This document shows, in pieces, positions 1 through 53,436 of a stretch of 64,000 bases of DNA. Origin of the DNA: Acidobacteriota bacterium (lineage in GTDB: Bacteria > Acidobacteriota > Thermoanaerobaculia > Multivoradales > Multivoraceae). Where the stretch lies: positions 7,622 through 71,621 of the forward strand of contig JAPPFP010000023.1 in assembly GCA_028877275.1 (NCBI GenBank), written 5' to 3'. The stretch's first letter is position 1. Every line of letters begins with the position of its first letter. A model generated the notes under the pieces. It had not been told where the DNA came from, ran no database searches, and saw only the letters and a program-made list of their open reading frames with translations. The position numbers and the translations under genes are program-made.

Positions 1-1175
1 AGGTGACCGTGGAAGGCGAGCCACCGGCCGTCTGGCGACCACGCGGCGCCGTAGTCCTCGTGCTCCTCCGAGAGGAGTGTGCGGACCGTGCCGGCCGGGG
101 CGCCCTCCGCGTCGAGGTCGAGGACGCCCAGGTCGAAGTCGATCGGCATGCGGAGGCGTCGCCAGGAGAACGTGGTGAAACCAAGCGCCCTTCCGTCGGG
201 GCGCCAGGAAGGCAGGAAGGCGCTCGTGCCGCCCGCCGTCGTCACGTCGACGGGGTCGCCCCCGCTCGCTGGAACGAGGCCCACCGCGGTGCGCGTGTGG
301 TACACGCTGAGAGCGACGCGACCGTCGGCCAGCGGCGTGACCGCGAGCACGTCACAGCCGTCTTGCGTCAGCCGTTCGGCCGGGCCGCCGTCCAGCGGCA
401 CGCGCCAGCCGACCAGGAACGAGTCGTCGGGCCCCGCTGCCGCGAGATAGAGCGCGTCTCCCGCGGGGGACCACTCCACGCGACTGTCCCATCCGAAGCG
501 GAAGTCGGCGGCGAGCGTGCGCGTCTCGCCCGTCGCGATCTCCGTCACGGCCAGGTCCGCGCGGTATCCGCCCGCAACCTGAAGATGCGCGACCGAGCGT
601 CCGTCGGGAGATCGAACCGGCGCGGCCCACCCCTCGGCGCGATCGACGAGCACGGTCGCGTCGTCGAGTCCCGGCCCATACTCGACCCATGCGGCATCGG
701 CGCCCGCGTGTCGAAGCGCGGTCACGGTCCCGTCGGACAGCAAACGCGGATGGTCGACGCGGGCGTCTCCGGGATCCACGATGCGCGACTCCTGGCCGGT
801 GGTCGGGTCCAGGGTCCAGACCCCGTGACTTGCGGGTCGGCGGTCGACGTACACGACACGCGAGCCGTCGGGCGACCAGGTCACCCGGAACCGTTCCGCC
901 GGCGTCGTGGTCAAGACGCGACCTACCCCTGTCGCAACGTCGTAGACCGTCAGCGATCTGGCGCCCGCGGCAAAGTCGGCGAACACGACGCGGTCGCCGG
1001 CAGGCGACGGGATGCCGGGGTAGGCGTCGTAGAGGTCCGTGTGGACGTGTCGCGCGAGCACGACGTCCGGGACTTCTTCGACGTTGCTTCCGCACGCCGA
1101 CGCAGCGAGGAGCGGTACCGCCAGCAGGCCGGGGGATGCAGCCCACCGGCGCCATGACCGCCGCCGAGCCTGCAC
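1..1175 (-). CDS. TolB-like (PD40) beta-propeller lipoprotein, 3' end outside the window
   Basis: Not in the ORF track; I translated it by hand from the GTG at 1175, which directly follows the upstream TGA. Reads MQARRRSWRRWAASPGLLAVPLLAASACGS (lipobox LAASA-C), then repeats VTWSPDGSRVVY and AAWSPDGRWLAF. Frame is open to the window edge. Confidence 0.75.
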   Translation of the reverse strand, partial: MQARRRSWRRWAASPGLLAVPLLAASACGSNVEEVPDVVLARHVHTDLYDAYPGIPSPAGDRVVFADFAAGARSLTVYDVATGVGRVLTTTPAERFRVTWSPDGSRVVYVDRRPASHGVWTLDPTTGQESRIVDPGDARVDHPRLLSDGTVTALRHAGADAAWVEYGPGLDDATVLVDRAEGWAAPVRSPDGRSVAHLQVAGGYRADLAVTEIATGETRTLAADFRFGWDSRVEWSPAGDALYLAAAGPDDSFLVGWRVPLDGGPAERLTQDGCDVLAVTPLADGRVALSVYHTRTAVGLVPASGGDPVDVTTAGGTSAFLPSWRPDGRALGFTTFSWRRLRMPIDFDLGVLDLDAEGAPAGTVRTLLSEEHEDYGAAWSPDGRWLAFHGH

Positions 1176-3335
1176 TCAGGCTTCCGGTTCGCCGGCCTTG
1201 CGCTTGTCGTCGAGGGCCGACATCAGGCCGACCTCGTTCAGGTAGGTGCCGGCCTTCGCGTCCTTGGCCGCTTCGACCTGGGCTTCGCTCGCGCCGGCTT
1301 CGGCGAGAGCCGAGAAGGGGCACCTGCCGGCGGCGGTCGCGGCTTGTGCTTCGGCCTCGGCGACGTCCCTGGCGGGCGACTCGTCCTTCTTGTCGAGCTC
1401 GTAGGCGGCGATCATCTGCTCCATCAGCTTGCGGCCGAGCTCGATGCCCTCTTCGACGGTCTTGATCCCGATCCGGGAGACGTGCTTCTCGCGCGCAACG
1501 AGTTCGACGCGCTCCTGGGTGCGGTCACGCATGAACCCTGCCGGAACCCGGAGAATGCGCTCGACGGCTTCGGCGGTCCACTCGTGGTTCGAGAGCAGCG
1601 GGACCCGGTCGTCGTCGCGGGCGATCAGCTTGCGCTCGTCCGCGGGCGCTTCGGCGGCGCCGTTGCCGTTCGCCTCGGTCGCCTGTACGCGGGCCTCGAT
1701 CGTCACGGGTTCGCCGGTCTCGTCCTCGATCATCACGCGCGCGAACTCGAAGGTGACGGTGGGCAGCTTGCTCATCCGCGCCTTCTTCTCGATCCGCGCC
1801 TTGGCGCGGCGCCGGCGGTAGGCGTCCTCGATCGTCTTGAGCGCCAGGCGGGCGTCGGCGGTCCACTTCAGCTTGCGGCCGTCGTAGGTGGTCTCGACCT
1901 CGAGACCGCCCTCCATCTCGGCGATCCGCTCCAGCATCTCTTCGGTGATCTGCTCGAAGGAGTCGCTGCCGCAGACGCCGCAGCGGACCGGGTCGGGTTC
2001 GGCCGAGGTGACGCCGCACTTGCGGCAGATGAAGGTCGGCCGGCTGCGCGCGAGCTGCAGGGCGATCTTCTCGGCCAGGGCTTCCGTCTCGCGCGCGGTG
2101 TACTTCGGCATGTAGCGGTCCATCGCCTCGTCGAGCACGTCGCTCGAGATCACGCTGTGGCCCTGTTCGACCGCCAGACGGTAGAGGGCCGTACGGGCGA
2201 TGCCGCGTACCTGCTCGGGGACGCGCTTGAAGCGCTCCTCGGCTTCGGGGGTCCAGCGGATGCTCTCCTCGGCCTTGACGTCGAGTTCCGGGTACTCCAG
2301 CCGGGTCGTCAGGAGCAGGTCGCAGGGGCAGGCGCGGAGCAGGTTCTCGGCGTTGCTGCCGAGGCCCGTCTCGCTGTCGTCGCTGTGGACGCCGACCCGG
2401 CCGATGACGAGCATCCAGGGATCGATCTTGCGGGCGTGATCGAGGACCTTCTGGAACGCCTTGCCGTCGAGCAGGGTCTTCGTCAACTCGACGCCGACCT
2501 CGGTCGCCATCGTCTGGGCGACATCCAGGTGGGACTGGTAGATCTGCGCCAGGCCGGTGTCGATGATCTCCTCGTGGAGCTGGTTCTGCTCCTCGAAACG
2601 GAAGATCTTCGCGGCGCGCTCGGTCAGCACGTTGACGACGCCCTTGAATACGGAGTAGTGGAGGTAGGGGTCGTAGACCGAGATCGCCTCGACCTTCTTG
2701 CCGAAGGTCTTCGCCAGGTCGATCGCGGTCATCAGGGCGCCGAAGGACTGGGGCGAACCGTCGACGCCGACCAGGATCGTGTCGCGGCCGTCGGTCTCTT
2801 CGTGGCGCCCGTTGCCGTTGCCGTTCGACGCCCCGGTCTTCGCCGGCAGCCGCTTGATGACCAGGACGTCCCGGTCGGCGGTGCGGGCGACCCGCTCACA
2901 GACCGAGCCGATCTGGGTGTCGCGGACGCGGCCGATTCCCATCACGCCGAGCACGGTCAGGTCGTAGCCCGACTCGCGGATGTCGCGGACGATCTCGACG
3001 TGGTGCTTGCCGTCCATCATCTTCGGCTCGAACTCGAGCCCGGCGTCGTCGCAGACCGCCTTCATCGGCTCGAGGTAGCTCTCCGAGATGAGCTCCAGAC
3101 CCATCGTGATGAGCGAGTCGTGGATCTTCCGCTGGCGGTCGAGCTCCGTTTCCTCGAGGTACTCGTCCGGCAGGGTGTACTCCATCTGCTTGAACCGGTA
3201 GTCGTGCATGCTGGCCGCGTAGACGTGGCAGCCGACCATCGTGGAGTCGAACTTGCGACCCAGCTCGACCGCCGACGCGATCGCCTGGTTCGAGTAGTCC
3301 GAGTTGTCGACGGGGACGTAGATCGTCTTGTACAT
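1176..3335 (-). CDS. Universal stress protein fusion: two USP domains, three PCP_red-like domains and a Cys4 zinc ribbon
   Basis: USP starts MYKTIYVPVDNSDYS and TILVGVDGSPQS, with GSVCERV and GLGSNAENLLR motifs. Three WTxEA/DA...RVP-type repeats resemble the BchB/ChlB C-terminal PCP_red domain. Also CRKC-x11-CGVC and a C-terminal GRCPF. Confidence 0.8.
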   Translation of the reverse strand: MYKTIYVPVDNSDYSNQAIASAVELGRKFDSTMVGCHVYAASMHDYRFKQMEYTLPDEYLEETELDRQRKIHDSLITMGLELISESYLEPMKAVCDDAGLEFEPKMMDGKHHVEIVRDIRESGYDLTVLGVMGIGRVRDTQIGSVCERVARTADRDVLVIKRLPAKTGASNGNGNGRHEETDGRDTILVGVDGSPQSFGALMTAIDLAKTFGKKVEAISVYDPYLHYSVFKGVVNVLTERAAKIFRFEEQNQLHEEIIDTGLAQIYQSHLDVAQTMATEVGVELTKTLLDGKAFQKVLDHARKIDPWMLVIGRVGVHSDDSETGLGSNAENLLRACPCDLLLTTRLEYPELDVKAEESIRWTPEAEERFKRVPEQVRGIARTALYRLAVEQGHSVISSDVLDEAMDRYMPKYTARETEALAEKIALQLARSRPTFICRKCGVTSAEPDPVRCGVCGSDSFEQITEEMLERIAEMEGGLEVETTYDGRKLKWTADARLALKTIEDAYRRRRAKARIEKKARMSKLPTVTFEFARVMIEDETGEPVTIEARVQATEANGNGAAEAPADERKLIARDDDRVPLLSNHEWTAEAVERILRVPAGFMRDRTQERVELVAREKHVSRIGIKTVEEGIELGRKLMEQMIAAYELDKKDESPARDVAEAEAQAATAAGRCPFSALAEAGASEAQVEAAKDAKAGTYLNEVGLMSALDDKRKAGEPEA

Positions 3336-3402
3336 GGTGGTGTCTCTTGTGTTGACGGAGTGTCGGGTCAGAGAGATTCGGCTTCCTGGCCGGAGAGTCG
3401 GG

Positions 3403-5181
3403 TTAGACGGCGGGAGCCTCGGTTGCGGTGAGGGTGGCGCCCGAGGCCTCTTCGTCGGCCGCCTTCTGGCGGGCGCGGCGGCGGACCAGGAAGACGACCA
3501 GCAACTCGATGGCGAGCACGATCAGGGCGGCGCGGAGCACGGGACCCGCCACCGCCTGCTCGACGCTCGGCTCGGTGTAGACGTAGAACCAGGACGACAG
3601 GGCCCGCTTGTTGCCGCGTTCGCGGTTGAAACCGTCCCAGACGCTGAAGGCGACCGGCGTGTACTGCTCCTCGGCGAAGCTGACGCCGGCTCGCGACGAG
3701 CGGCGTCGCTTGTAGGTCACGGTCCACGCGCCCTGGTCGTAGGAGGTCACCGCCTCGACGATGTCCGCCTCGGTCGGCTCGATCGAATCGCTGCCGCGGC
3801 CCCGGAACGTGTCGGCGACGCCGTAGGTCAGGTTGACGAACCAGAGGTCGACCGGGTTCTGGGCGTCGCCGTACAGGAAGTACGGCTTGAGTTCGGGAGT
3901 CTCTTCGGGCGCTAGCGACGCCGGGAACTGCAGCGCCACGGCGTCCGAGAACTCCGCACCTCCGGCGCCCGCGTCGGCGGTTCCGAAGAAATCGTCGCCG
4001 CCGTCGCCGAAGAAGTCGTCACCGCTGTCGCCGAAGAAGTCGTCTTCCGCGGGCGCTTCCTCGCCGCCGAAGTCGCCGAAGAAGTCGTCGGAGTCGCCAG
4101 CATCGTCGGCCGCGTCGCCGCCGATGCCGTTGTCCTCGTCCCACATTGGCACTTCCAGGCTCGGGTTGTTGCGGCCCGAGGTATCGGCGCGCAGATCGTG
4201 CCAGCGGACCCGAAACGCGATCTCGTCGCGGTTGTAGACCGCCTGGGCCTCGATCGAGGTGACGGGGGGAAAGAAGTTGCGTCCCGGTTCGGTGATCTGG
4301 CCGACCAGGGGGAAGCGGGTCATCGGCGCGGACTCGAACAGCGCGTCGAGCGTTTCCTCGTCCTGCAGGTCGATCGGCTCCGCCGAGTAGACCGCCGTGA
4401 TCAGGGTGCCGTAGTTCGGATCGTCTCCGTCGCCCAGGGAGTAGACGTAGTTCACCAGGTGCTGGCGATCCTCGACCTCGAGCGAGTCGGCGTAGGACGG
4501 CATCGGCGTGCCGTTCAGCCCGGTGGAGAACGTGCGGTAGATGTCCTCCTTGGTCGGACCGCCGCGGTAGGTCCAGCGCTGGGTCAGGTCGGCGGCTCTG
4601 ATCGGGTCGCCCTTGTCGTTGACCAGGGTCGGCGCCGAAGCGCCGTCCCCCCGGCCGACCTCGCCGTGGCATGCGCCGCAGGCCTGCTCCTCGTAGAGCA
4701 CGCGGCCGCGGGCGACCGACTCCTCGGTCGATTCGAGCGGCCGGGGAATCTCGATCGGTTCGGCGTAGCGGTCGGGGTTCTCGAAGTCGGGCGAGAAGGT
4801 CTTGATGTAGTAGATGACGTTCTGGATCTCGGCGCTTGTCAGGTTCGGCCAGCCCGGCATCGAGGTGTAGGGGGCTCCGATCTCGATGATCCGGCGCAGG
4901 TCGTCGTCCGTCGGCAGCATGCCGTTCGGTGTGGTGCGGAACTTGTACTTGCCGGTGGTGAAGTCACGCGGCTTCGGCCGGACCCGCGGCGTGGCGTAGC
5001 CGTTGCCGTCGCCCGTGTCGCCGTGGCACTGGCCGCAGTACTTGTCGTAGACGACCTTGCCGGCCGCCCGCTGCTCTTCCGTGCCGAGGTCGACCTGGGC
5101 GACGGCGGGCAGAGCCAGGATCAGGGCGGCGGTGGCGAACGTTGCCGCGGTCCGGGTGCGTCGGTTGGCGTGCGCGGTCAT
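3403..5181 (-). CDS. Diheme cytochrome c fused to an ethylbenzene dehydrogenase gamma (EB_dh/DOMON-like) domain, with C-terminal membrane anchor
   Basis: ATG at 5181 overlaps the upstream TGA. Signal peptide; CGQCH and CGACH; PRDFTTGKYKFRTT. EbdC-like motifs FSDAVALQFP, PVDLW and VAFSVWDG..RERGNK; C-terminal hydrophobic helix. Confidence 0.8.
   Translation of the reverse strand: MTAHANRRTRTAATFATAALILALPAVAQVDLGTEEQRAAGKVVYDKYCGQCHGDTGDGNGYATPRVRPKPRDFTTGKYKFRTTPNGMLPTDDDLRRIIEIGAPYTSMPGWPNLTSAEIQNVIYYIKTFSPDFENPDRYAEPIEIPRPLESTEESVARGRVLYEEQACGACHGEVGRGDGASAPTLVNDKGDPIRAADLTQRWTYRGGPTKEDIYRTFSTGLNGTPMPSYADSLEVEDRQHLVNYVYSLGDGDDPNYGTLITAVYSAEPIDLQDEETLDALFESAPMTRFPLVGQITEPGRNFFPPVTSIEAQAVYNRDEIAFRVRWHDLRADTSGRNNPSLEVPMWDEDNGIGGDAADDAGDSDDFFGDFGGEEAPAEDDFFGDSGDDFFGDGGDDFFGTADAGAGGAEFSDAVALQFPASLAPEETPELKPYFLYGDAQNPVDLWFVNLTYGVADTFRGRGSDSIEPTEADIVEAVTSYDQGAWTVTYKRRRSSRAGVSFAEEQYTPVAFSVWDGFNRERGNKRALSSWFYVYTEPSVEQAVAGPVLRAALIVLAIELLVVFLVRRRARQKAADEEASGATLTATEAPAV
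3982..4089 (-). repeat. Intragenic repeat encoding DDFFG x4
   Basis: + strand GTCGCCGAAGAAGTCGTC at 4003, 4027 and 4072, with a variant ending at 3996. The first three copies have 24-nt spacing. Confidence 0.85.
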
Positions 5182-5999
5182 CAGTGCTGCCCCAGCGCGC
5201 GCGGCTCGTAGCCGTTGAAGTCGTAGATGAACAGGTTGACGTCCCACATCTCCTCGGTGGTCAGGAACTTCTCCCAGGCGGGCATGGCACTGTCCCAGGG
5301 CGTGCCGCCGGCTGGCATGCCGGGACCGCCCTTGGCGATCCGCCAGTGAACGAACGAGGATTGCAGGGCCGGCAGCGTGCCGACGTCGTTGAAGTTGCTG
5401 GGCACCGGGTTCAGGCCGTGGGCGAACATGCCGTCGCCGCCCATGCCGTCGCCGTGGCACCAGAAGCAGTTCTCGTAGTACACCCGGCGGCCGTTCTCCA
5501 CGTGCTTCCCGTACAGCTCCGGGTCGTCGTGCTTGTAGTGGAGGTACGGGTTCTCCGCCGTCGCCATGTCGATCGTCTCGTCGTGAACGGTGAGTTCAGT
5601 GGGCGGCGGCGGATGGATCTCGCGGCCGAATCCGGGCGCCTCGAGCGGCATGGTCAGGTCGGCGTAGGCGTTGTAGGCAGCGAGGCCCGGGAGAGCGACG
5701 AGCAGACCGGCCAGGGCCAGACGGTAACGGGGCTCGAGAATCAGGCGCTGGATTGGTTGGACCGTTTCCGCCAACCGCTCACGGCTGGAAGAGGCGTAGC
5801 TAACCAGCGCGAGGCCGGTGATCCCCAGATAGATCGTCGCGACGGACTGCGGGATCGGCACGGTGAAGCCGAACCTGAAGAAGGCCCACAGGGCGCCCCC
5901 GGTGTAGAGGAGCCAGACGAGGGTGTGGGCCCGCCGCCAGGCGAGCACTCCGCCAATGGCGGCCAGTGCCAGAACGATGGGTAGGTTGAGTCCCCACAT
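5181..5999 (-). CDS. Membrane-anchored monoheme cytochrome c
   Basis: Several N-terminal TM helices; CFWCH; PWDSAMPAW with a candidate distal Met. Confidence 0.85.
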   Translation of the reverse strand: MWGLNLPIVLALAAIGGVLAWRRAHTLVWLLYTGGALWAFFRFGFTVPIPQSVATIYLGITGLALVSYASSSRERLAETVQPIQRLILEPRYRLALAGLLVALPGLAAYNAYADLTMPLEAPGFGREIHPPPPTELTVHDETIDMATAENPYLHYKHDDPELYGKHVENGRRVYYENCFWCHGDGMGGDGMFAHGLNPVPSNFNDVGTLPALQSSFVHWRIAKGGPGMPAGGTPWDSAMPAWEKFLTTEEMWDVNLFIYDFNGYEPRALGQH

Positions 6000-6010
6000 G
6001 ATGGATCAGG

Positions 6011-6496
6011 TCAATAGCCGAGGTCGGTGTCGAGGGTTACGGTCGGTGTTCCGCCCAGACTCTGCAACCAGGCGATCACCGCTTTCATTTCGTCTTCCGA
6101 GAGGCTGATCGGCGGCTGGTCTATCGCCTGCATTCCATCCGCAAAGCCGGGAACGATGAACGCCGCCGGTTCGTAGAGGGACTGGGCCAGGTACTCGAGG
6201 CCGGAGAGCCCTTCGATCTGGGTCGCGGCGCGGGCGCCGATTCCGTCCAGGTCCGGGTAGCGGAGCGGCCCGCTCTGGCCGACGGTGTGACAGCCGACCA
6301 GGCACTGTCCCTTGCCGCTGGCGAGTTCCGCACCGACCGCGACCAGATCCTCCGTCGTCATCTCGGCGCTGATCAGCACGGGCGGCGGCGGATGGGCCTC
6401 CTTCTGCGGCACGATCTGGCCCAGGTACATGTAGAAGGCCGTCGTACCCAGCACGAGCAGGACCAGCCGCAGGGGCATGGGGACGCTCAGCTTCAT
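6011..6496 (-). CDS. Membrane-anchored monoheme cytochrome c with CX3CH motif
   Basis: N-terminal TM helix; GKGQCLVGCH; ATGA overlap with the upstream gene. Confidence 0.8.
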   Translation of the reverse strand: MKLSVPMPLRLVLLVLGTTAFYMYLGQIVPQKEAHPPPPVLISAEMTTEDLVAVGAELASGKGQCLVGCHTVGQSGPLRYPDLDGIGARAATQIEGLSGLEYLAQSLYEPAAFIVPGFADGMQAIDQPPISLSEDEMKAVIAWLQSLGGTPTVTLDTDLGY

Positions 6497-8424
6497 GCCG
6501 CCTGCCCCCCTTCGAGCTGGTCGCGGCCGTCAGCGACCGGCTTCGGTTCCCAATCCTTCTTCCCGCCAAGACTGCTGAGCCAGAAGACGACACCGAGCAG
6601 GCCGAAGAAGATGAGGACAGTGACGGACACGACCTGCGTTGCGAAGCCGAGGGTCGGCGTGTAGGCGTCCGGGGACGTGTCCAGGATCACGCCGTACACG
6701 TGCCACTCCTGGCGCAGCCCGGAACGGACGTATCCCATCAATCCCATCAGCCAGGTGAAGCTGAGCGCGATGAAGATGAGAGCGTACTGGGAGACCGCCG
6801 GCATCCTGCCCCATTTGGTCTCGCCCGACTGCGCGGCGTTGCGGTACAGGGGCAGGTCGATCACCGTGATCACGACCAGGGCCGCGAGCACCGAGTAGAC
6901 CTGCGGGATCGCGAAGCGTATGCGTATCGCGGCGTCCACGTAGTAGCCGTAGACGCCGTAGAAGATGACCAGAGCCGCGGCGGAGGAGAAGACGATCGCC
7001 TGGGCGCGGGTGAGGAGATCCCTGTGCGGATGGACCGACTGTCTGCCGGTCCGCCGATAGAGCAGGAAGCTCATGTAGGTCGAGAGGATCAGGATGTTGA
7101 CCGCCGTGTTCTTGGCCGACATCTGCCCGAGATAGGAAAGCTGCGGGTGGCTGCTGCCGCCCATCGCGGCGATCTCCGATACCGATGAGATGGCGTAGCG
7201 CGGCGTCGCCCAGACGGCGAAGCAGAGGGCAATCGCGATCAGCAACCACTTGATGAATTTCTGGAAGTGAACGCCGCCCTCCATGCGGCCCATCCCCAGC
7301 CAGAGGTAGTAGTTCGCCCCCAGGAACAGGTTGCCGATGAGAGCCGCCTGGATGACGAACAGCCAGGAGAAGGTGCCGCCCATCATCTGGATGCCCAGGG
7401 TCTGGCTGAACGCGTAGATCTCGGCGGCGAGGTAGTAACCCGCGAACGGCAGGGGGAGGAAGGCGATGATGGCGACGAAGTTGCCGACGTAGCCCATCCA
7501 GTCGAAGTGGGCCTTCTCCTCGTCCGTCTTCGCCTGCAGGTAGCGGAAGGCCGCGTAGGCCGCGGCGATCGAGCCGCCGAAGGCGACGTTGGCGATGATC
7601 CGGTGGATGTTGATCGGCATCCAGGTGAAGTTGAAGAAGGCGTCCCGCAGGCTCAGCAGGGCGCCGCTCTCCGAAACGGCGGAGACGAAGTCCGGGACGC
7701 CGTCGCCATCCACGTCGTCGCGCCTGCCGGGCGACATCATGAAAGTGAGCCAGGCGTTGGCGATGAACATGATCGCGGTGCCCACGATGTTCAGCATGAA
7801 GCCCAGGAACAGGTGCATCTTCGGCCCGAACTTGCCCCAGCCGTAGTAGTAGCTGTAGAGGAACAGCGCCTCCAGGAAGAACAGCAGAACGTAGGGCAGG
7901 AACGTCGGCGAGAAGATGTGCATCAGGTAGTTCGTGAACTTCGGGTAGAGGATGATCAGCCCGAAGGTCAGGAACGCCCCGAAGGTGGCGGTCATCGAGA
8001 ACGAGACGGAGAGCAGCTTCGTGAACTCGTACGCGAGCTTGTTGTAGCGCTCCTCCTTCTTCACGTAGCCGACGAACTCGATGATGAAGGCGAACAGCGG
8101 CACCGCGAGGACGAACGCCGCGAACAGCAGGTGGAGCTGCGCCAGCACCCAGACGGTGACCCGGCTGCCGACGAACGGGACCGTCCGGTATTCGGCCTCC
8201 TCGTAGGGCCTGGCCTGCGCTTCGGCTTCGTCCGCGGCCTGTTCGTCGGCGATGCCCTGCTGGCGTGGCGTGAGCTCGGCCTCGCCCTGCTCTTCCTGGG
8301 CGGCGACCTGCCGGTCCGGCTGGCGGTACTCGTTGTCCACCAGGAATCCGCCCAGGCGCACCGTGACGATCACGGACACGAAGGCGAGAACGCCGATGCC
8401 GAAGAGGATCCTGTTTCTGTTCAT
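6493..8424 (-). CDS. Cytochrome bd oxidase subunit I-like (CydA-like) membrane protein, divergent type
   Basis: Start MNRNRILFG after GGGA. Motifs QLHLLFAAF (His19-like), FLEALFLYSYYYGW, ANAWLTFMMSP, NIHRIIAN (His186-like) and C-terminal GYVRSGLRQEWHVYG (cf. GWxxxExGRQPW). Many TM helices. Confidence 0.8.
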   Translation of the reverse strand: MNRNRILFGIGVLAFVSVIVTVRLGGFLVDNEYRQPDRQVAAQEEQGEAELTPRQQGIADEQAADEAEAQARPYEEAEYRTVPFVGSRVTVWVLAQLHLLFAAFVLAVPLFAFIIEFVGYVKKEERYNKLAYEFTKLLSVSFSMTATFGAFLTFGLIILYPKFTNYLMHIFSPTFLPYVLLFFLEALFLYSYYYGWGKFGPKMHLFLGFMLNIVGTAIMFIANAWLTFMMSPGRRDDVDGDGVPDFVSAVSESGALLSLRDAFFNFTWMPINIHRIIANVAFGGSIAAAYAAFRYLQAKTDEEKAHFDWMGYVGNFVAIIAFLPLPFAGYYLAAEIYAFSQTLGIQMMGGTFSWLFVIQAALIGNLFLGANYYLWLGMGRMEGGVHFQKFIKWLLIAIALCFAVWATPRYAISSVSEIAAMGGSSHPQLSYLGQMSAKNTAVNILILSTYMSFLLYRRTGRQSVHPHRDLLTRAQAIVFSSAAALVIFYGVYGYYVDAAIRIRFAIPQVYSVLAALVVITVIDLPLYRNAAQSGETKWGRMPAVSQYALIFIALSFTWLMGLMGYVRSGLRQEWHVYGVILDTSPDAYTPTLGFATQVVSVTVLIFFGLLGVVFWLSSLGGKKDWEPKPVADGRDQLEGGQAA

Positions 8425-8437
8425 CTGTTTCCCGACG

Positions 8438-9025
8438 CTACTGGCGTGCCGCCCGCTCCGCCTGCATCGTTCGGCGCTCCTGCTGCAGCTCACGGACGTA
8501 GGCGACGACCGCCCAGCGGTCCTCGACCGTCAGCGGGTAGCGGTAGCCCGCCATCAGGCCGACGCCGTTCGTGATCACGTCGTACATCCGTCCGTCGTTG
8601 TAGGCGGCGATGCGTTCATCGTGGAGGGAGGCGGTGGGGGTGCTGGCGCGCTCGAACAGGATGCCCTGGCCCGTGCCGCGCTCGTCGTGGCAAGGCTGGC
8701 AGTAGATCGTGTAGCGGTTTTCGCCGCGGGCGAGGATGTCGCCGGTGACCGCGATCGGTGAGGTCTCCAGGAAGTAGCCCGCGTCGTCGCGGCCGAACAG
8801 CAGGCGGTGATCGACGTCGAGCTGCCCGCGCGCCACGGTGCCCGCGACCGGCTGGCGCATGGCCATGCCGTCATAGAAGAAGGCGCTCGCCTCCTGCGGG
8901 TCGTAGCGCTCCTGGTAGTCCATGTTCGGGTTGGGGTGGATCGGCGGGAATGGCGACGGCATGCCCCGGCAGCCGAGCAGGAGCAGAACGGCGGCCAGAG
9001 CCACGGCTTCGGGCAGCCGGCGCAT
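8438..9025 (-). CDS. actE: Alternative complex III monoheme lipoprotein subunit E
   Basis: Lipobox LLLLG-C; NMDYQERYDPQ..FFYDG.AMR.PVAGTVARG; CQPCH; DRWAVVAYVRELQ. Start overlaps the actB stop. Confidence 0.85.
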   Translation of the reverse strand: MRRLPEAVALAAVLLLLGCRGMPSPFPPIHPNPNMDYQERYDPQEASAFFYDGMAMRQPVAGTVARGQLDVDHRLLFGRDDAGYFLETSPIAVTGDILARGENRYTIYCQPCHDERGTGQGILFERASTPTASLHDERIAAYNDGRMYDVITNGVGLMAGYRYPLTVEDRWAVVAYVRELQQERRTMQAERAARQ

Positions 9026-12000
9026 CAGTGTGCGTCCTCGCCGTGCCCGGCGTCCTCGCCGTGGTCCTCGGCGGGCGGCGGCGCCGGTGTGATCTCGCGG
9101 TTCGGGTGGCGGATCTTCGCGAGATACGTCGTGCGCGGCTTCGTGTGCAGGTCGTCGAGCAGATTGTAGTTCCGGGGGCTCGCCTTGGCCTCGGAAACGC
9201 CGCTCGCCGCGTCCGTGATGTCGCCGAAGCGGATCGCTTCGGCCGGGCAGGCCTGCTGGCACGCGGTGACGACGTCGCCGTCGGCCAGACCCCGCCCGTC
9301 CTGCCTGGCGTCGACCTTGGCGCGGCTGATGCGCTGGACGCAGTACGTGCACTTCTCCATGACGCCCCGGGAACGGATCGTGACGTCCGGGTTCTTGCCC
9401 AGCTTCATCACCTCGGGAGTGTCCTTGGTGAAGTTGAAGTAGTTGAAGCGCCGCACCTTGTAGGGGCAGTTGTTCGAGCAGTAGCGGGTACCGATGCAAC
9501 GGTTGTAGACCATCGCGTTCAGCCCTTCGCTGTCGTGCACGGTGGCCGCGACCGGGCAGACCTGTTCGCAGGGCGCGTTCTCGCACTGCATGCAGGGCAC
9601 CGGCTGGAAGCTCGTCTGCGGCTCGGACGGGAGGTCGTGGACGAGGTCCTGGAGCATGCCGCCGAATTCGCCCTCGTCGGAGAAGTAGCGGTCGATGCGG
9701 AGCCAGTGCATCTCCCGGCCCTCCATCACCTGCTCCTTGCCGACGATCGGCACGTTGTTCTCGCTCTGGCAGGCGATCATGCAGGCGTTGCAGCCGACGC
9801 AGGCGTTCAGGTCGATCGTCATGCCCCACTGCGGGGAGTCCTGGTAGGTCCACTCGTCCCACATCGAGTTCTCGTGTGGCTTCTCGCTGTGGGCGGTCGC
9901 GAAGTCGGGATGCGCCTCGAAGTAGTCGAGATCGGCCTCGCGGACGATCGGACGCCCTTCCATCGAGTGGTGGTCCTGAGTCTGCGCCAGCGGGTACGTG
10001 CCGCCGGTCGGGCTGAGCGTGCCGCGGGAGAGATCGGGCGCTTCCGAGGTGCGCAGGAGGTAGGTGTTCCGCCCGGGAGCGTGGCCCCCGGCGTTGGCGG
10101 CGCTGGCGATGCGGCCCGGGAAGTCGCGACCGTAGCCGAGGTCGAGCGTCACCGTGTTGTCAGCCTGTCCCGGCACCTGCCAGACCGGCAGTTCGAGTTC
10201 CCGCCCGCCGGAAGCCAGCGTCACGAGGTCCTCGTTCTCGAGACCCAGCGCGCCGGCGGTGGCGGGGCTGATCAGGGCGGCGTTGTCCCAGGTCAGCTTG
10301 GTCATCGCGTCCGGCAGCTCCTGGAGCCAGCCGTTGTTGGCGAAGCGACCGTCGTGAATCGCCGGGGAACACCGGAAGACGATCTCCAGGTCGTCGCTCG
10401 CGGCGACCGCCTGGGCGGCGTTGCCCGCCGCCCGCAGCGCGGCCGCGCCATCCTCGGGCGCGATGGCGGGGAGATCGACCGCCGGCGGGGCACTGCCCTC
10501 CAGCAGGCCGTCGTGCAGGACCTTGCGCCAGGCGACTTCGAACTCGGAGAGCGCGACGGGGAAGGGCAGCGACATCGGGTCGACCGGAACCGCCTCTTCC
10601 GCTGCTGCATCTTCGCCCTCGCCGTCCGCGGTCGCTTCGGCTTCCGCCTCGGCTTCCGGCGCGGTCCCGGCGACGGCCGCCTCGTCGGCGTCCTCCTCGA
10701 GCGGCAGGCCGAGGATCCCGGACCAGGTCTCGCGGACCAGATCGCGGCCATCGCGGGACTCGCCCAGCGCGGCCAGCGCCAGCACTTCGACCAGGCTCTT
10801 CGCGCCGTAGAGCGGCTCGATCAGGGGTTGCACGACGCTCGCGGTGCCATCGGTGGCGCGGGCGTCGCCCCAGCTCTCGAGATAGTGGGCGAGCGGTACG
10901 TGCCAGCGCGCGAAGCGACTCGTCTCGTCCCGGTAGGCGCCGACGTGGATGACCGCGCCGGCATTGCCCAGGCTCTCGAGGGCGGCGGAGAAGTCGAGGT
11001 CGGCGGGAGCGTTGTAGGCGGGGTTGGCCCCCAGAACCAGCAGACGGTCTACCGCGCCTTCCTGGATCGCCGCCGCCAGGGCGGCAAGGTCCGCGTCGCT
11101 CGAACTGCCGCTGTCGGGCGTCCGGTGGTACGTCACCGTCGAGCCGGCGTTGCCGAGCGCCGAGTTCAGGGCGTAGACGGCGGCGTGGACGGCCGCCGGC
11201 TGGCGGTTGCCGGCGACGATCAGGCCGGCGCCGCGGTGGGCGATCAGGTCCTGCGCCAGTGCGTCGACCCACGCGTCGTCGATGTCCGCGGCCGGCGCGC
11301 CGCCGTCAAGCGGCAGTTCCAGCCCGTGTCCCGCGAGCGCGCTGCCGAGCCGGGCGACGAAGGTGGCGACGCGGCCGCTCTGCACGCGCAGGCGGTGGTC
11401 GGCGTTCGCCGCCGTGACCGAGTGGACACCGTCGACGGCGTAGTGGCGCAGCGGACTGCCGCCACCTTCCTCGTTCACGCGCCGTGCCCGCGAGTAGCCG
11501 CGCAGGTTGCGGACGCTGTCGCCCTCGGTGCTGAGGAAGTCGGAGTCCAGGGTTAGCAGGACCTGCGCGCGGTCCACGTGGTACAGCGCGTGGACGTGTT
11601 CACCGGCAGCGAGCGTCGTCCCCCGATCGGCGTTCTCCTCGCTCACCGGCTCCCAGGACACCCAGCGTGCCTGCGGATAGCGGTCGAGAAGCGCTTCCTT
11701 GAGCCGGACCAGGGTCGGCGACGAGGACGGCTCGGCGAGGATCGCGAAGCCCGAGCCGTCGGCCGCGGGGCCGAGGTCGCCTTCGGTCCAGGCGGCCACG
11801 AAGTCCTCCCAGGAGGATGCTTCGTCGCCGAACCGCACGGACTTGGACCGGTCCGGGTCGTACAGGTCGAGCATCGACGACTGAGCCCACACGCTCGACG
11901 CGCCTTCCGAGAACGGATGGAGCGCGTTGCCTTCGACCTTGGTGGGCCGGCCCTCGTGGCTCTCCACCAGCAGACCGAGCGCGCGGCTACCCAGCGGCAT

Positions 12001-12306
12001 CGTGGTGGCGTAGGCCAGCGGAACGCCAGGGACCATGCCTTCCGGGGCGTCGACGTAGGGGACGATGTGTTCGACGGGGCGGCGGATGATGTCGCAGCCG
12101 GTCAGGCCGGCGAGCGACGCCGTCCCGCCCAGCATGGCGAGCACGCTGCGCCGGCTGACGCCGTCCCGCAGCAAATCGGGAGGCGCTTCCGACGCGCCCT
12201 CCGGGAACTCCCGCTCGAGAAAGGCGACCGGCGCGGAATCGCCCTGAAGTTGCTCCAGGCTGCGCCAGTATGTTCTCTCCGGCCGCTTGCCGTTGCCACC
12301 GCTCAT
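9025..12306 (-). CDS. actB: Alternative complex III subunit B (molybdopterin oxidoreductase-like domain plus Fe-S domain)
   Basis: YWRSL..L leader and Tat-like SRRSVL; EGRPTKVEGN; DGRFANNGWLQELP; Fe-S motifs CVGCNAC, CMQC, CIGTRYCSNNC, CTYC. ATG at 12306 overlaps the actA stop. Confidence 0.92.
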   Translation of the reverse strand: MSGGNGKRPERTYWRSLEQLQGDSAPVAFLEREFPEGASEAPPDLLRDGVSRRSVLAMLGGTASLAGLTGCDIIRRPVEHIVPYVDAPEGMVPGVPLAYATTMPLGSRALGLLVESHEGRPTKVEGNALHPFSEGASSVWAQSSMLDLYDPDRSKSVRFGDEASSWEDFVAAWTEGDLGPAADGSGFAILAEPSSSPTLVRLKEALLDRYPQARWVSWEPVSEENADRGTTLAAGEHVHALYHVDRAQVLLTLDSDFLSTEGDSVRNLRGYSRARRVNEEGGGSPLRHYAVDGVHSVTAANADHRLRVQSGRVATFVARLGSALAGHGLELPLDGGAPAADIDDAWVDALAQDLIAHRGAGLIVAGNRQPAAVHAAVYALNSALGNAGSTVTYHRTPDSGSSSDADLAALAAAIQEGAVDRLLVLGANPAYNAPADLDFSAALESLGNAGAVIHVGAYRDETSRFARWHVPLAHYLESWGDARATDGTASVVQPLIEPLYGAKSLVEVLALAALGESRDGRDLVRETWSGILGLPLEEDADEAAVAGTAPEAEAEAEATADGEGEDAAAEEAVPVDPMSLPFPVALSEFEVAWRKVLHDGLLEGSAPPAVDLPAIAPEDGAAALRAAGNAAQAVAASDDLEIVFRCSPAIHDGRFANNGWLQELPDAMTKLTWDNAALISPATAGALGLENEDLVTLASGGRELELPVWQVPGQADNTVTLDLGYGRDFPGRIASAANAGGHAPGRNTYLLRTSEAPDLSRGTLSPTGGTYPLAQTQDHHSMEGRPIVREADLDYFEAHPDFATAHSEKPHENSMWDEWTYQDSPQWGMTIDLNACVGCNACMIACQSENNVPIVGKEQVMEGREMHWLRIDRYFSDEGEFGGMLQDLVHDLPSEPQTSFQPVPCMQCENAPCEQVCPVAATVHDSEGLNAMVYNRCIGTRYCSNNCPYKVRRFNYFNFTKDTPEVMKLGKNPDVTIRSRGVMEKCTYCVQRISRAKVDARQDGRGLADGDVVTACQQACPAEAIRFGDITDAASGVSEAKASPRNYNLLDDLHTKPRTTYLAKIRHPNREITPAPPPAEDHGEDAGHGEDAH

Positions 12307-12950
12307 CGGTGGCACCCCGTGCAGTCCTCGGGCGGCGCGAGCGCCCGTTCCGCGATCGCCAGTTCGGCGAAGGCCGCGTGGTCGCCGGTCGGCCTCCACT
12401 CCATGTCGGTCACCGCCTCGAGCGGCCGGAGGTGCGGACCCGGGTCGCGGTGACAGTCGAGGCACCAGCTCATGCTCAGGGGCTCCACCTGGTAAACGAC
12501 TTCCATCTCGTGGACCGGACCGTGGCAGGTGCCGCAGCCGACGCCGGCCCCGACGTGAACGCTGTGGTCGAAGAAGGCGTAGTCGGGCAGGTTGTGGATA
12601 CGCACCCAGCGCATCGGCCGATCCTGCTCGACGCTCTTGCGAATCGGCTCCAGCAGTTCGCTGTCCCGGGCGGCCACGTGGTGGCAGTTCATGCAGACCT
12701 GGGTCGGGGGAACGTTGGACACCGCCGATTCCTCAACCGAGGCGTGGCAGTAGCGGCAGTCGAGGCCCAGTTCGCCCACGTGGAGGGCGTGGCTGTAAGG
12801 CACGGGCTGCGCCGGGCGATAGCCGACGTCGGTGTACTCGGGCGAGAAAAACCACCAGATGCCGCCCACGACAACGGCACCGACGACCGGCAGGGCGACC
12901 GCCGCGTACAGCGGTAGCTTGAGGGTCCACTTGGGGAAGATCTGAGGCAA
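12303..12950 (-). CDS. actA: Alternative complex III pentaheme cytochrome c subunit A
   Basis: MPQIFP start, one TM helix, QPVPYSHALH. Five CxxCH motifs: CRYCH, CMNCH, CGTCH, CLDCH, CTGCH. Confidence 0.92.
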   Translation of the reverse strand: MPQIFPKWTLKLPLYAAVALPVVGAVVVGGIWWFFSPEYTDVGYRPAQPVPYSHALHVGELGLDCRYCHASVEESAVSNVPPTQVCMNCHHVAARDSELLEPIRKSVEQDRPMRWVRIHNLPDYAFFDHSVHVGAGVGCGTCHGPVHEMEVVYQVEPLSMSWCLDCHRDPGPHLRPLEAVTDMEWRPTGDHAAFAELAIAERALAPPEDCTGCHR

Positions 12951-13004
12951 GATTCCGTACCTTGAAGCAGGGTACGAAGCCCTGCCCGTCCTGCGGTCGC
13001 GCGG

Positions 13005-13010
13005 AGTGTA
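13005..13010 (-). promoter_or_regulatory. Candidate -10 box (TACACT) for the act operon
   Basis: TACACT on the minus strand about 55 nt upstream of the actA start. No clear -35 box. Confidence 0.4.
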
Positions 13011-13060
13011 CAGCGTGGGTTCGAGGCGGTCAAAGCCCGGCGCCGGGATAGGGTCGAGCC

Positions 13061-13717
13061 ATGTCCGAGGAGCGGCTTTCGGGCCCCGATGAGGGGGTAC
13101 AGAACACCGGCCCGCGACTCCTGAACCCCTGGGTTCTCGCGGCGCTGGCGGGTCTCGTCCTGATCCCGGCGATCAGGCCGCTGCTCCGGTTCGAGCCCGA
13201 CCCGCCGCCGGTCCTGCGGGAGTTGCCGCAGTGGCGGCTGGTCGACCAGAACGGAGAGGCGTTCGGCAGCGACGACCTGGCGGGCGAGGTCTACGTTGCC
13301 TCCTTCCTGTTCACGCGCTGCGCCACCGTCTGTCCGCGCCTCACGGCCTCGCTGCGCCAGTTGGAGCGTCGCTATCGCGAGGAGGGCGTGGAGGACGTGA
13401 GACTCGTGAGCTTCACGGTCGACCCGGCGCACGACACCCCGGATCTCCTCCGCGACTATGCGCGAAGCCGGAGCCTGGACCTGGAGCGCTGGAGTCTCGT
13501 CACCGGCGCCGAGCCGGAGATGCGTTCGGTGGTCGTCGACGGCTTCGCCCTGCCCATGGGAGAACGACTGGACCTCGCCGGCGGTCTGGTGGATGTCGCC
13601 CACGCGGCGCGGCTGGCTCTCGTCGACCGCGACGGCGGCGTTCGCGGCTACTACGGCTCGGATGCCGTTGGCCTGGACGAGGTCTTCCACCGCACCCGCC
13701 AGATCCTGGCCGAGTAG
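13061..13717 (+). CDS. SCO1/SenC family copper chaperone
   Basis: TM anchor; FTRCATVCP (CxxxCP); SFTVDPAHDTP; conserved His in VAHAARLALVD. Confidence 0.9.
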   Translation: MSEERLSGPDEGVQNTGPRLLNPWVLAALAGLVLIPAIRPLLRFEPDPPPVLRELPQWRLVDQNGEAFGSDDLAGEVYVASFLFTRCATVCPRLTASLRQLERRYREEGVEDVRLVSFTVDPAHDTPDLLRDYARSRSLDLERWSLVTGAEPEMRSVVVDGFALPMGERLDLAGGLVDVAHAARLALVDRDGGVRGYYGSDAVGLDEVFHRTRQILAE

Positions 13718-13772: not shown

Positions 13773-14936
13773 CTACCCGGCCGCCTGCGGCGGCAGCGGG
13801 TCAGAAGACCCGCGCACCCAGTCGGCCCGTTCCCGCTGTCCCGGCGGTTCCATCTCCAGGATCCACTGGCGGATCAGCTCCACGGCTTCGACGTCGACCA
13901 GGCCTCGGCCGATCTCGGGCATCGCGATGCCCGGGTGGGTCGACTCGAGCCGGTAGACGAGGATCGACTCGTCGGGCTTGCCGGGGACGACGGCGTAGAC
14001 GCGGTCGCCGGTGCCGAGGCCTGCGGCGACCGGGTGCTTGTAGACACCGAGGCGGGTGCGATTGTCGTGGTCCTTGCGCAGATCGAGGCCCGATGTTCGG
14101 CCGCTGCCCGTCAGGTTGTGGCAGTGGGCGCAGTTGATGTCGAGCCAGGTGCGCGCCCGCTCATCGACGCTGCCGGAGGCGGCGACGTCCCAGACCGGTG
14201 CCCGCGGCGCTTCCGCGGCCGGCGGCGCGCCCTCGAGGAAGCCGATGCGCCGCCATCGTTCGAGCTGGTTTTCCCGCAGGGTCGTGCCGTCGGGGTCGGC
14301 GTAGGTGTACTCGCGGTTCAGTTGCGCCGCCTGGGGCCCGATCGGCAGTACGCGCTCGCCGTCCGTCCGGTGACAGGTCTTGCACTGGTTCGCGTTCGGC
14401 ACCCGGTACGTGTGCTCGATCCTCGCGCCTCCCGCATCGATCCATGACGCCTCGAGCGGCCCGCCCACGATCGCGAGTTCAGCGTCGGTCAGCTCCGCGT
14501 TCCAGATGTACGGCAGGCCCACCCAACCACCTTCCTCGTGGATGAGCAGCCTGGTCTCAAGCGGCCGCAGGCCCTCCTCGGGAACCCTGAAGTCTGTCGG
14601 GTAGGCGAAGGTCTTCGAGATGACCGTGCCGACAGGGAACTCGAACGGGCCCTCTTCGCGGTAGAGCGCGGGTTCGACTTCGCCGTCAGGCCCTTCCGGC
14701 AGGCGCACGAAGCGGAACTTCAGCGCGTAGTCCGAGAACAGGGCCGTGTTCAGGTCGTAGGGCTCGACCCTTGCGGCCGGAATGTGGCTGGCAAGCTCTC
14801 CGGCGAACAGCCCCCAGGCCGAGAGCTTCTCCGGGTAGCGGGCGAACGGTCCCTGGCCGGAACCGCGCTCCCCGGCCCCGCAGCCCGCGAGCGCGGCGAT
14901 CGTCAGTGCCGCGGCTGCGAGCCTACGGAGCGCCAC
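13773..14936 (-). CDS. SO2930/HNE_0200-like diheme c-type cytochrome lipoprotein
   Basis: Lipobox LAG-C; YDLNTALFSDYALKFRF; FPVGTVISKTF; CKTCH and CAHCH; MPEIGR. Overlaps the upstream beta-helix gene, its usual partner. Confidence 0.8.
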   Translation of the reverse strand: MALRRLAAAALTIAALAGCGAGERGSGQGPFARYPEKLSAWGLFAGELASHIPAARVEPYDLNTALFSDYALKFRFVRLPEGPDGEVEPALYREEGPFEFPVGTVISKTFAYPTDFRVPEEGLRPLETRLLIHEEGGWVGLPYIWNAELTDAELAIVGGPLEASWIDAGGARIEHTYRVPNANQCKTCHRTDGERVLPIGPQAAQLNREYTYADPDGTTLRENQLERWRRIGFLEGAPPAAEAPRAPVWDVAASGSVDERARTWLDINCAHCHNLTGSGRTSGLDLRKDHDNRTRLGVYKHPVAAGLGTGDRVYAVVPGKPDESILVYRLESTHPGIAMPEIGRGLVDVEAVELIRQWILEMEPPGQRERADWVRGSSDPLPPQAAG

Positions 14937-51151: not shown

Positions 51152-51234
51152 GCGGGGAAGCGTACAACGCGGAATGTCGGTACGATTCGCGCTCGCCGAC
51201 CGGCCCCGGTTCGGCCATTACACGGACTCTTGCC

Positions 51235-52371
51235 ATGACCCTGACGCTCGATCGCCAGACCTCCGCGCAGCAGGCGCCGGAGCAGCGTGTCTTCAACTTC
51301 TCGCCGGGTCCGGCGGTGCTGCCGTTGCCGGTCCTCCGGGAGATCCAGCGCGATCTGCTGGCGCTGCCGGGCGCCGGCAGTTCCGTGCTGGAGATCAGTC
51401 ACCGCTCGGCGGCGTTCGACGCGATTCTCAAGGAAGCGGAAGCCAACCTGCGCGAGCTGCTTGCCATTCCGGCCGACTACCGGGTGCTCTTCCTGCAAGG
51501 CGGGGCCTCGCTGCAGTTCTCGATGGTCCCGATCAATCTGCTGCGCGGTCAGGACCTGCCGGCGAGTTACATCCTGACCGGATCGTGGGGCGGCAAGGCC
51601 GCCGTCGAAGCGCGGCGCGAGGGCAGGGTCCACGTCGCCTGGGACGGAAAGGCCGACAACTTCGTGCGGGTGCCGAACGACGGAGAGCTCGATCTGCCGC
51701 CGGCCTCGGCCTACGTCTACTACACGTCGAACGAGACGATCCAGGGTGTCCAGTTCCGCCGTCCGCCCGCGGTCGGCGCCGCGCCCCTGGTGTGCGACGC
51801 GTCGTCGGACTTTCTCTCGGCCCCGGTCGACGTGGGCGAACACGGCCTGCTCTACGCCTGTGCCCAGAAGAACGCCGGTCCCGCCGGGCTGACCGTGGTC
51901 ATCGTCTCGGACAAGGTTCTCGAACGGTGCGGCGACGACGTGCACTCGATGCTCAGCTACCGGCTTCAGGCGGAGAAGGGCTCGCGCCTCAACACCCCGA
52001 ACGTCTTCGGCGTGTACGTCTTCCTGCTCATCACGCGTTGGCTGCGCGACGAGGTCGGCGGTCTGGGGGCCGCGGCTGAGCGGGCGGCGGCAAAGAGCGG
52101 GCTGATCTACGACGTACTGGACCGGGACGGCGGCGAGTTCTTCATCGCCCATGCCGAGCGCGAGTGTCGTTCGCGCATGAACGTGACCTTCAGGCTGCGC
52201 CGCGCCGGTCTGGAAGAGGCCTTCGTGGCGGGCGCGGCCGAGCTGGATCTCGTCTCGATCAAGGGCCACCGTTCAGTCGGCGGCTTCCGTATCTCCGCCT
52301 ACAACGCGATGCCCGTCGAAGGCGTCCAACGCCTGCGCGACTACATGCTGGACTTCCGCGCCAGCCACTGA
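51235..52371 (+). CDS. serC: Phosphoserine aminotransferase
   Basis: FNFSPGPA, LEISHRS, FLQGGAS.QF, NETIQG, AQKNAGPAG, KGHRSVGG.R.S.YNA. Confidence 0.95.
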   Translation: MTLTLDRQTSAQQAPEQRVFNFSPGPAVLPLPVLREIQRDLLALPGAGSSVLEISHRSAAFDAILKEAEANLRELLAIPADYRVLFLQGGASLQFSMVPINLLRGQDLPASYILTGSWGGKAAVEARREGRVHVAWDGKADNFVRVPNDGELDLPPASAYVYYTSNETIQGVQFRRPPAVGAAPLVCDASSDFLSAPVDVGEHGLLYACAQKNAGPAGLTVVIVSDKVLERCGDDVHSMLSYRLQAEKGSRLNTPNVFGVYVFLLITRWLRDEVGGLGAAAERAAAKSGLIYDVLDRDGGEFFIAHAERECRSRMNVTFRLRRAGLEEAFVAGAAELDLVSIKGHRSVGGFRISAYNAMPVEGVQRLRDYMLDFRASH

Positions 52372-52386
52372 GCAAACCCTGGGTGC

Positions 52387-52429
52387 GCCGGCCTTCTGGC
52401 CGGCATCAGGCGCGATGCCGCGAAGCGGC
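52387..52429. terminator. Two GC hairpins between convergent genes
   Basis: GCCGGCC-TTCT-GGCCGGC (52387-52404) and GCCGC-GAA-GCGGC (52417-52429). Confidence 0.45.
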
Positions 52430-52441
52430 GAGCCCGTATCG

Positions 52442-53431: not shown

Positions 53432-53436
53432 TGGCG

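Follow-up and report, generated by a model that had tools for sequence, protein, structure and literature searches.

A 64,000-nucleotide stretch of an Acidobacteriota genome (the window; contig C20 of the assembly) carries, at positions 3403–12950 of the minus strand, seven genes for respiratory proteins that overlap or are only narrowly spaced, and so make up one tightly coupled operon. The first three, actA, actB and actE, encode peripheral subunits of alternative complex III (ACIII). They are followed by a gene for a protein related to CydA of cytochrome bd, hereafter the bd-like protein, and by the genes for three c-type cytochromes: c161, c272 and cEbdC. The membrane arm expected of an ACIII, actC-actD-actF, lies on a different contig, C17.

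The 215-residue product of actA (12303–12950) has five CxxCH motifs, one N-terminal transmembrane (TM) helix and a Pfam cytochrome c7/c3 match, and is predicted to be the membrane-anchored pentaheme cytochrome c of ACIII. An ATGA overlap joins actA to actB (9025–12306), whose product of 1093 residues carries the twin-arginine signal SRRSVL and 4Fe-4S (Fer4) domains. These features point to the fused molybdopterin-like and 4Fe-4S subunit of ACIII, exported by the twin-arginine translocation (Tat) pathway. The junction with actE (8438–9025) is TGATG, an overlap of 1 nucleotide. With 195 residues, the lipobox LLLLGC and one CQPCH motif, the actE product is probably the lipoprotein monoheme cytochrome c of ACIII.

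A gap of 13 nucleotides separates actE from the bd-like gene (6493–8424), which encodes 643 residues and matches PF01654 (E = 1.4e-24) over residues 110–358 only. It overlaps c161 (6011–6496) at an ATGA junction. The product of c161 is a small membrane-anchored cytochrome c (Pfam Cytochrom_C, E = 2.6e-5), and about 11 nucleotides further on lies c272 (5181–5999), for a monoheme cytochrome c with a CFWCH motif, a PF13442 match and hydrophobic segments that form an N-terminal membrane region. A TGATG overlap leads into cEbdC (3403–5181), which encodes a signal peptide, two class-I heme c domains (PF13442 twice) and an EB_dh domain (PF09459, E = 4.8e-14) of the EbdC/NxrC-like heme b type, with a C-terminal TM anchor at residues 548–566. 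The junctions and heme motifs read here agree with a first-pass annotation of the window, which had described the coupled actA-actB-actE genes, the 13-nucleotide gap and the three cytochromes.

The heme motif of c161, at residue 65, is CX3CH (CLVGCH) rather than CxxCH. Among 82 orthologous segments, 25 have CxxxCH and the rest have CxxCH, as if one residue had been inserted into the motif that attaches the heme. In cEbdC, the EB_dh domain is broken at about residues 420–470 by an acidic low-complexity insert with DDFFGD-like repeats.

The first-pass annotation had found no actC, actD or actF in the window, and had concluded that this was an ACIII without its NrfD membrane arm. A profile search of the whole genome, which is 97.8% complete, confirmed the former by finding neither NrfD (PF03916) nor ActD (PF11821) on C20. 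The latter was overturned by the same search, in which only C17 and C21 gave matches. On C17 the gene order is actC, actD, actF, a gene for a 265-residue protein, coxI, coxIII, a gene for a 157-residue protein (p157) and coxII. C17 ActC is an NrfD protein of 486 residues (PF03916, E = 1.3e-25), ActD matches PF11821 (E = 1.5e-63), and the NrfD-like ActF of 411 residues matches ActC (E = 4e-12). No actA, actB or actE accompanies this set, the upstream genes being unrelated housekeeping genes only. Correspondingly, a tblastn search of the genome gave no second full-length copy of the window's ActA, ActB or ActE.

Comparison with the ACIII structure 6f0k in the PDB shows how the two loci complement each other. 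Chain A matches ActA of the window over its full length (E = 3.9e-68), and chains B and E match the window's ActB (E = 2.7e-264) and ActE (E = 1.9e-53). Chains C, D and F match ActC (E = 6.7e-202), ActD (E = 3.5e-46) and ActF (E = 1.5e-88) of C17. As each of chains A–F is matched once and at full length across the window and C17, the two loci together supply exactly one of each core subunit.

Two other accounts of the missing arm were rejected. The first draws the arm from C21 (locus L007, approximately 69300–74500), where a Qrc/ACIII-like set common to all same-genus genomes searched comprises an ActA-like multiheme cytochrome c, a QrcB-like molybdopterin subunit of 766 residues, an Fe-S subunit 55–58% identical to the ActB C-terminus, an NrfD protein of 498 residues and an ActD-like stretch. 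With its own NrfD protein and ActD-like stretch, this set is self-contained. The second, an assembly artefact, fails because closed single-contig genomes of the genus are also split.

The C17 operon also holds the only COX1 match in the genome, which makes its aa3-type enzyme the sole heme-copper oxidase. CoxII carries the motif for CuA but none for heme c, and the aa3 oxidase must therefore draw on a cytochrome c-type donor, of which ACIII is an example. Elsewhere in the genome, cytochrome b (PF00033) gave no match; the single PF01654 match is the bd-like protein, and the single EB_dh match is cEbdC. The first-pass annotation had further remarked that no nitrite oxidoreductase (NXR) lies nearby. 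This holds for the genome as a whole, in which no type II dimethyl sulfoxide (DMSO) reductase alpha subunit scored above the family cut-off (best 78.9 bits against 984.75).

The separation of the two operons is conserved. In an order-level set of 41 genomes (G000 and 40 relatives; 24 of the same genus and 16 of other families), every one of the 24 same-genus genomes has the bd-like gene, which adjoins actB in 23, the two genes lying on different contigs in G016. The actC gene, 93–99% identical, lies away from the fusion locus in 24/24, at distances that range from 34 kb in G012, the least, to 0.37–1.1 Mb in closed genomes. Among the other families, seven of 16 genomes (G026, G031, G033, G034, G036, G038 and G040) have a bd-like gene, 66–70% identical and always adjoining actB. 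The same seven, and no others of the 16, carry an actC that is 70–75% identical and adjoins no actB. The remaining nine have only adjacent actB-actC sets, with actC 56–60% identical.

When the window and C17 proteins were compared with fetched stretches by tblastn, two conserved clusters emerged: actA-actB-actE-bd-like-c161-c272-cEbdC-Usp, and actC-actD-actF-(CarboxypepD_reg-like)-coxI-coxIII-(p157)-coxII. In four genomes (G033, G034, G036 and G038) both lie on one contig, roughly 10–35 kb apart. Furthermore, 78 related loci with 62–99% identity were fetched from public contigs. Nearly all are titled Acidobacteriota (Candidatus Multivorans, Thermoanaerobaculia, Vicinamibacteria and Polarisedimenticolia), two titles naming other groups. 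The fusion gene order is kept in 77 of the 78, and the remaining contig, of 2.2 kb, is too short to show the order. The arrangement is not due to chance, and the strong synteny that the first-pass annotation had suggested surveying is real within Acidobacteriota. A convergent coxII stands directly behind the Usp gene in 7/78 loci, which, with the shared contig in the four genomes above, suggests that the two clusters were once neighbours. L066 and L087 have a canonical ACIII operon directly upstream.

A wider sample of 201 genomes across the phylum contained 14 with a bd-like orthologue at E ≤ 1e-40, two of which (G088 and G189) were left out of later comparison. Three (G162, G167 and G214) have the fusion together with an orphan-type actC (74%) away from any actB, and the fragmentary G200 is consistent with them. 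Taken together, every fusion genome examined, 10 from other families and 23 of the 24 of the genus, also has the orphan actCDF-cox cluster. In four further genomes (G183, G216, G061 and G145) the order is bd-like-c161-c272-cEbdC with a Usp gene nearby and no actABE in the fetched flanks; in these four the ACIII genes are contiguous.

One of the four, G216, preserves an unsplit form. On a single contig (L111) it carries actA-actB-actE-actC-actD-actF, followed after intervening genes by coxI-coxIII-p157-coxII, and its bd-like module lies elsewhere without act genes. Here actE stands directly behind actB, as in the window, whereas L012, L113 and L114 have the canonical A-B-C-D-E-F order. Phylogenies were built from loci in which a single tblastn segment covered at least 80–85% of the query without a stop; the ActC rows of L012 and L114 were dropped for a stop inside the segment. 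In the ActC tree (FastTree, 16 rows), G216 ActC nests in the orphan-type clade with support of 0.94, and this group is split from canonical ActC with 0.99. Similarly, G216 ActB falls outside the canonical ActB clade (IQ-TREE, 20 rows; 100/100). The simplest history is that an A-B-E-C-D-F-cox operon broke after actE, and that its ABE half joined a pre-existing bd-like module.

The bd-like protein shares a limited core with CydA. In phmmer comparisons with CydA chains from the PDB (6rko, 5doq and 9r2g), only residues 83–243 align, corresponding to CydA helices 1–4. In this alignment His98 is equivalent to E. coli H19, His204 to H126 and Glu185 to E107. Three histidines, H98, H204 and H274, are nearly invariant among 41 homologues, down to 27% identity. 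The region of H186, the Q-loop and M393 (heme b558) gave no phmmer alignment to any of the three templates; in E. coli CydA we take H186 and M393 to be heme b558 ligands and the periplasmic Q-loop to be the site of quinol oxidation. The bd-like protein itself contains no CxxCH motif. No CydB lies beside its gene, the downstream genes encoding cytochromes c, although no search aimed at the CydB family was made.

An AlphaFold2 model of the bd-like protein (predicted local distance difference test score 82.4; predicted template modelling score 0.82) begins with an additional N-terminal helix, followed by an acidic linker, which is poorly modelled, and a long core of helices. All ten significant Foldseek matches of this model are CydA chains, with a probability of 1.0, and none is an NrfD-like fold, so that the predicted fold is that of CydA. 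Members of the OR-N family of the cytochrome bd superfamily are described, in the available part of one source, as sharing with CydA the first four helices, which form the O2-site core, and as lacking the quinol site and any heme c motif of their own; OR-N1 and OR-N2 have 14 helices there and OR-N3 to OR-N5 have 10 (10.1101/2021.01.16.426971). The bd-like protein has about 13–14 helices besides the extra N-terminal one, as judged from a hydropathy scan and the model, and resembles OR-N1/N2 by helix count alone. Its sequence features place it with the OR-N family.

It is proposed, with a probability of roughly 0.65, that the two loci encode a split ACIII, in which the actABE half is fused at the operon level to a cytochrome c-dependent bd-like module of OR-N type and the actCDF half acts in trans. 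ActA, ActB and ActE, made from the window operon, would form a periplasmic electron-transfer wire that assembles on ActC, ActD and ActF made from the C17 operon. Quinol would be oxidised at ActC, and electrons would pass from the Fe-S clusters of ActB through the ActA hemes to ActE. Two acceptors would then be open to them: the aa3 oxidase, whose genes lie with those of the membrane arm, or the bd-like complex, whose genes lie with those of the wire. The components of the latter complex would be the bd-like heme protein, c161 and c272 as membrane cytochromes, and the EbdC-like protein with its diheme-c and heme-b domains; it is most likely a second, cytochrome c-fed terminal oxidase. Of the two roles that the first-pass annotation had offered for the bd-like protein, that of quinone interface falls away, and the split-ACIII reading leaves room for the other, a terminal acceptor that receives electrons from the ActB-ActA-ActE wire.

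Several observations weigh against this proposal. The binding of ActABE to ActCDF and the flow of electrons from ActE to the bd-like module are proposals drawn from gene-level facts, and the oxidase function of OR-N proteins is unproven. At the position of E99 the bd-like protein has Pro or Tyr, depending on the template, so one of the two canonical CydA proton-channel glutamates is gone. A complete canonical actABCDEF-cox paralogue is also found in genomes of other families, for example at L012 of G031, and there the orphan actCDF is not strictly needed for respiration. The co-occurrence of the two clusters may partly reflect linkage, since they are neighbours in several genomes, and the genomes compared are kin rather than independent. 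In the ActB tree, L077, a Thermoanaerobaculia contig, has an actB (approximately 3332–6559) that adjoins a bd-like gene and yet groups with canonical ActB (100/99). The separation of the two ActB lineages is thus imperfect, and the placement suggests replacement or recombination between paralogous ACIII sets. Finally, the 13-nucleotide coupling of actE to the bd-like gene in 77 loci is also what a physical ActABE/bd-like complex would predict.

The alternative that survives best, itself unlikely, casts the bd-like module as a periplasm-facing complex for electron entry or exit instead of an oxygen reductase, with ActABE linking it to the quinone pool via ActCDF. Its EbdC-like heme b might be a docking site for a periplasmic dehydrogenase, or the module might serve reverse electron flow. 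For a homologous Nitrospira cluster, the part of the source available proposes two roles, anchoring NXR and carrying reverse electron transport (PMC6606698). The accessible text of another states that O2 reduction has never been demonstrated biochemically for any OR-N enzyme (PMC10839748), and the missing E99 equivalent points the same way. Against this alternative, the genome shows no type II DMSO-reductase alpha subunit above cut-off and the operon encodes no partner dehydrogenase. The equivalents of H19, H126 and E107 in the four-helix core and the near-invariance of His98, His204 and His274 argue for an oxygen reductase, as do the recurrent neighbours of the locus, an SCO1 copper chaperone and oxidase genes.

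There is also a slim chance that ActABE is a dual-docking module, which binds either ActCDF, to oxidise quinol and feed aa3, or the bd-like complex directly, or bridges both in one megacomplex. Were this so, the bd-fold protein would be a genuine structural partner of ActB and ActE in this acidobacterial lineage, and the arrangement would give a first handle on the electron supply to OR-N oxidases. An interface prediction for the ActB Fe-S domain (residues 800–1093) and the bd-like protein scored 0.00 in a run without controls, and gives no verdict either way.

The hybrid complex envisaged in the first-pass annotation, in which the bd-fold protein replaces ActC and ActF as membrane anchor and quinone interface for ActABE, is very unlikely. 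It drew on the translational coupling of the seven genes, with its short actE/bd-like gap, and on a window without an NrfD gene, and the gene order kept in 77/78 loci at 62–99% identity suits it equally. However, the orphan actCDF is the exact missing complement and accompanies the fusion in every genome checked, G216 has the unsplit A-B-E-C-D-F order, and four genomes have the bd-like module on its own. The protein itself also argues against such a role: its alignment with CydA is confined to helices 1–4 and leaves out the Q-loop/heme b558 region, the available text describes OR-N proteins as without a quinol site (10.1101/2021.01.16.426971), and Foldseek returned only CydA chains and nothing NrfD-like. 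That the adjacency reflects co-regulation only, with ACIII and the bd-like module as independent branches that came to share a promoter after a rearrangement, is equally doubtful: both units occur separately in other Acidobacteriota and the split point falls exactly between functional modules, but the fusion has been kept over many families at 62–70% protein identity with short or overlapping junctions, which argues for selection on co-expression and stoichiometry.

The split ACIII can be compared with several known systems. With the ACIII and aa3/caa3 oxidase pairs of Rhodothermus marinus (6f0k) and Flavobacterium johnsoniae (6btm) it shares the six core subunits, the act-cox linkage, a fused ActB with a Tat signal and an ActE lipoprotein. 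It differs from them in having its actABE and actCDF operons on different contigs and its ABE half fused to a bd-like module, and the unsplit relative of the window locus is ordered A-B-E-C-D-F, not A-B-C-D-E-F. In Chloroflexus aurantiacus, the accessible part of one paper describes a Cr operon that has actABEG but lacks actCDF; the authors suggest that it shares the ActCDF of the Cp operon (PMC9316378). Like the window, this is an operon of peripheral ActABE with ActCDF proposed to act in trans. By the same partial account, Chloroflexus has two ABE sets and one CDF set, the latter inside a complete operon (PMC9316378), whereas the present genome has a single ABE set and a single CDF set, both outside a complete operon and linked to two different terminal oxidases.

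The Nitrospira-type parallel that the first-pass annotation had drawn does exist in print, in two forms. In Nitrospirales, the text available describes an ACIII (actAB1B2CDE) followed by an OR-N5 bd-like oxidase (PMC12342949), and in TO_3 of Manganitrophus ACIII genes are linked to a bd-like oxidase of OR-N type, as far as that source was accessible (10.1101/2021.11.15.468770). These resemble the window in the direct linkage of ACIII genes to a non-canonical bd-like oxidase. There, according to the same excerpts, actC and actD stand beside actB, ActB is split and the OR-N5 proteins form a pair with about 10 helices, whereas in the present system ActB is fused, actC, actD and actF lie at another locus, and the bd-like component is one long protein that is partnered by an EbdC-like one. 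In the second form, the cluster of Nitrospira, Nitrospina and anammox bacteria comprises, in the part of the report available, a bd-like protein, two cytochromes c and an alternative NxrC with a periplasmic heme b (PMC6606698). TO_1 of Manganitrophus is described in the accessible text as the same cluster type (10.1101/2021.11.15.468770).

On these partial descriptions, the TO_1 type is alike in composition to the window's module, having a long bd-like protein, two membrane cytochromes c and an EB_dh heme b protein with a TM anchor. The acidobacterial module differs in its host, in which no NXR-type enzyme was found, in the two N-terminal heme c domains of its EB_dh protein, and in its position downstream of actABE, always with a Usp/PCP_red gene behind it. 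Compared with canonical cytochrome bd (CydAB; 6rko and 5doq), the bd-like protein retains the fold of the first four helices and the equivalents of H19, H126 and E107. It differs in its unaligned Q-loop/heme b558 region, the lack of an E99 equivalent and of an adjacent CydB, and in having an extra N-terminal helix and more TM helices. No description of an actABE and bd-like arrangement in Acidobacteriota was found in the literature searched, although the OR-N operon contexts drawn by Murali et al. may already show something similar. Within that literature, a split ACIII with an OR-N-type module is built from known parts in a combination new for Acidobacteriota.

In nitrite- and manganese-oxidising Nitrospirota and Nitrospinota, the bd-like oxidases of the OR-N family are regarded as the principal terminal oxidases. 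To our knowledge, no one has shown what these oxidases do or what feeds them. In many Acidobacteriota, an OR-N-type module is hard-wired at the operon level to the electron-output half of ACIII. Furthermore, the respiratory chain of the genus looks unusually simple, with no PF00033 protein, one fused-ActB ACIII, one aa3 oxidase, one bd-like module and the C21 set. Operon-level wiring and a simple chain together nominate ACIII, through ActE, as the physiological donor of the bd-like module. The presence of the module in a genome without an NXR-type enzyme indicates that it is not tied to nitrite oxidation. The system further illustrates cleanly how a respiratory complex can have its peripheral arm encoded in one operon and its membrane arm in another, with a different oxidase alongside each. 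Annotation pipelines will consequently miscall an incomplete ACIII in these genomes.

An eighth conserved gene (1176–3335, minus strand) begins 67 nucleotides downstream of cEbdC. Its 719-residue cytoplasmic product, the Usp protein, is assigned by its Pfam domains and contains two Usp domains, two PCP_red domains (PF08369) and a HypA-like Zn-ribbon stretch. Wherever a related locus extends far enough, the gene stands behind cEbdC, and it stays with the bd-like module also in genomes that lack actABE beside it. It may encode a dedicated regulator or maturation factor of this module.

Upstream of the operon, a sigma-70-like promoter match (13005–13033, minus strand) lies about 55 nucleotides before actA. 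Within 900–13200 one such site was found against 0.8 expected by chance, and its position is suggestive only. Contigs from four metatranscriptome-labelled runs (X15, X16, X17 and X19; three studies), from strains approximately 92–99% similar, cover much of 1000–10400 and are thin over 10340–13600. One X15 contig (5021–9470) bridges c272 through actE into actB. These contigs give a weak hint that relatives express the locus; they prove neither transcription nor a single mRNA, and DNA carry-over is possible.

Divergent from actA lies a gene for an SCO1/SenC copper chaperone (13061–13717, plus strand; PF02630, E = 1.4e-24); it is next to actA in the whole genus and in several further families. 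Putative copper-binding sites were once proposed for a Nitrospira bd-like oxidase, according to the available part of that report (PMC6606698), and the chaperone beside actA deserves attention in that light. Beyond SCO1, positions 13773–14936 of the minus strand encode a diheme cytochrome c of 387 residues.

On C17 (locus L006), two paralogous proteins of approximately 265 residues with a CarboxypepD_reg-like C-terminal domain (12084–12881, plus strand, and 7824–8618, minus strand) flank or interrupt the actCDF-cox genes. The copy between actF and coxI is kept in all orphan clusters examined, and is possibly an extra subunit. Further along the window, positions 49091–53572 (minus strand) encode a 686-residue molybdopterin oxidoreductase, whose best NCBIfam matches are all far below their cut-offs, a 373-residue protein without a family and a 376-residue cytochrome c; these may form another periplasmic redox module. 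In an Atlas look-up, the nearest clusters were commonest in Pseudomonadota, Nitrospirota and Nitrospinota, and are leads only.

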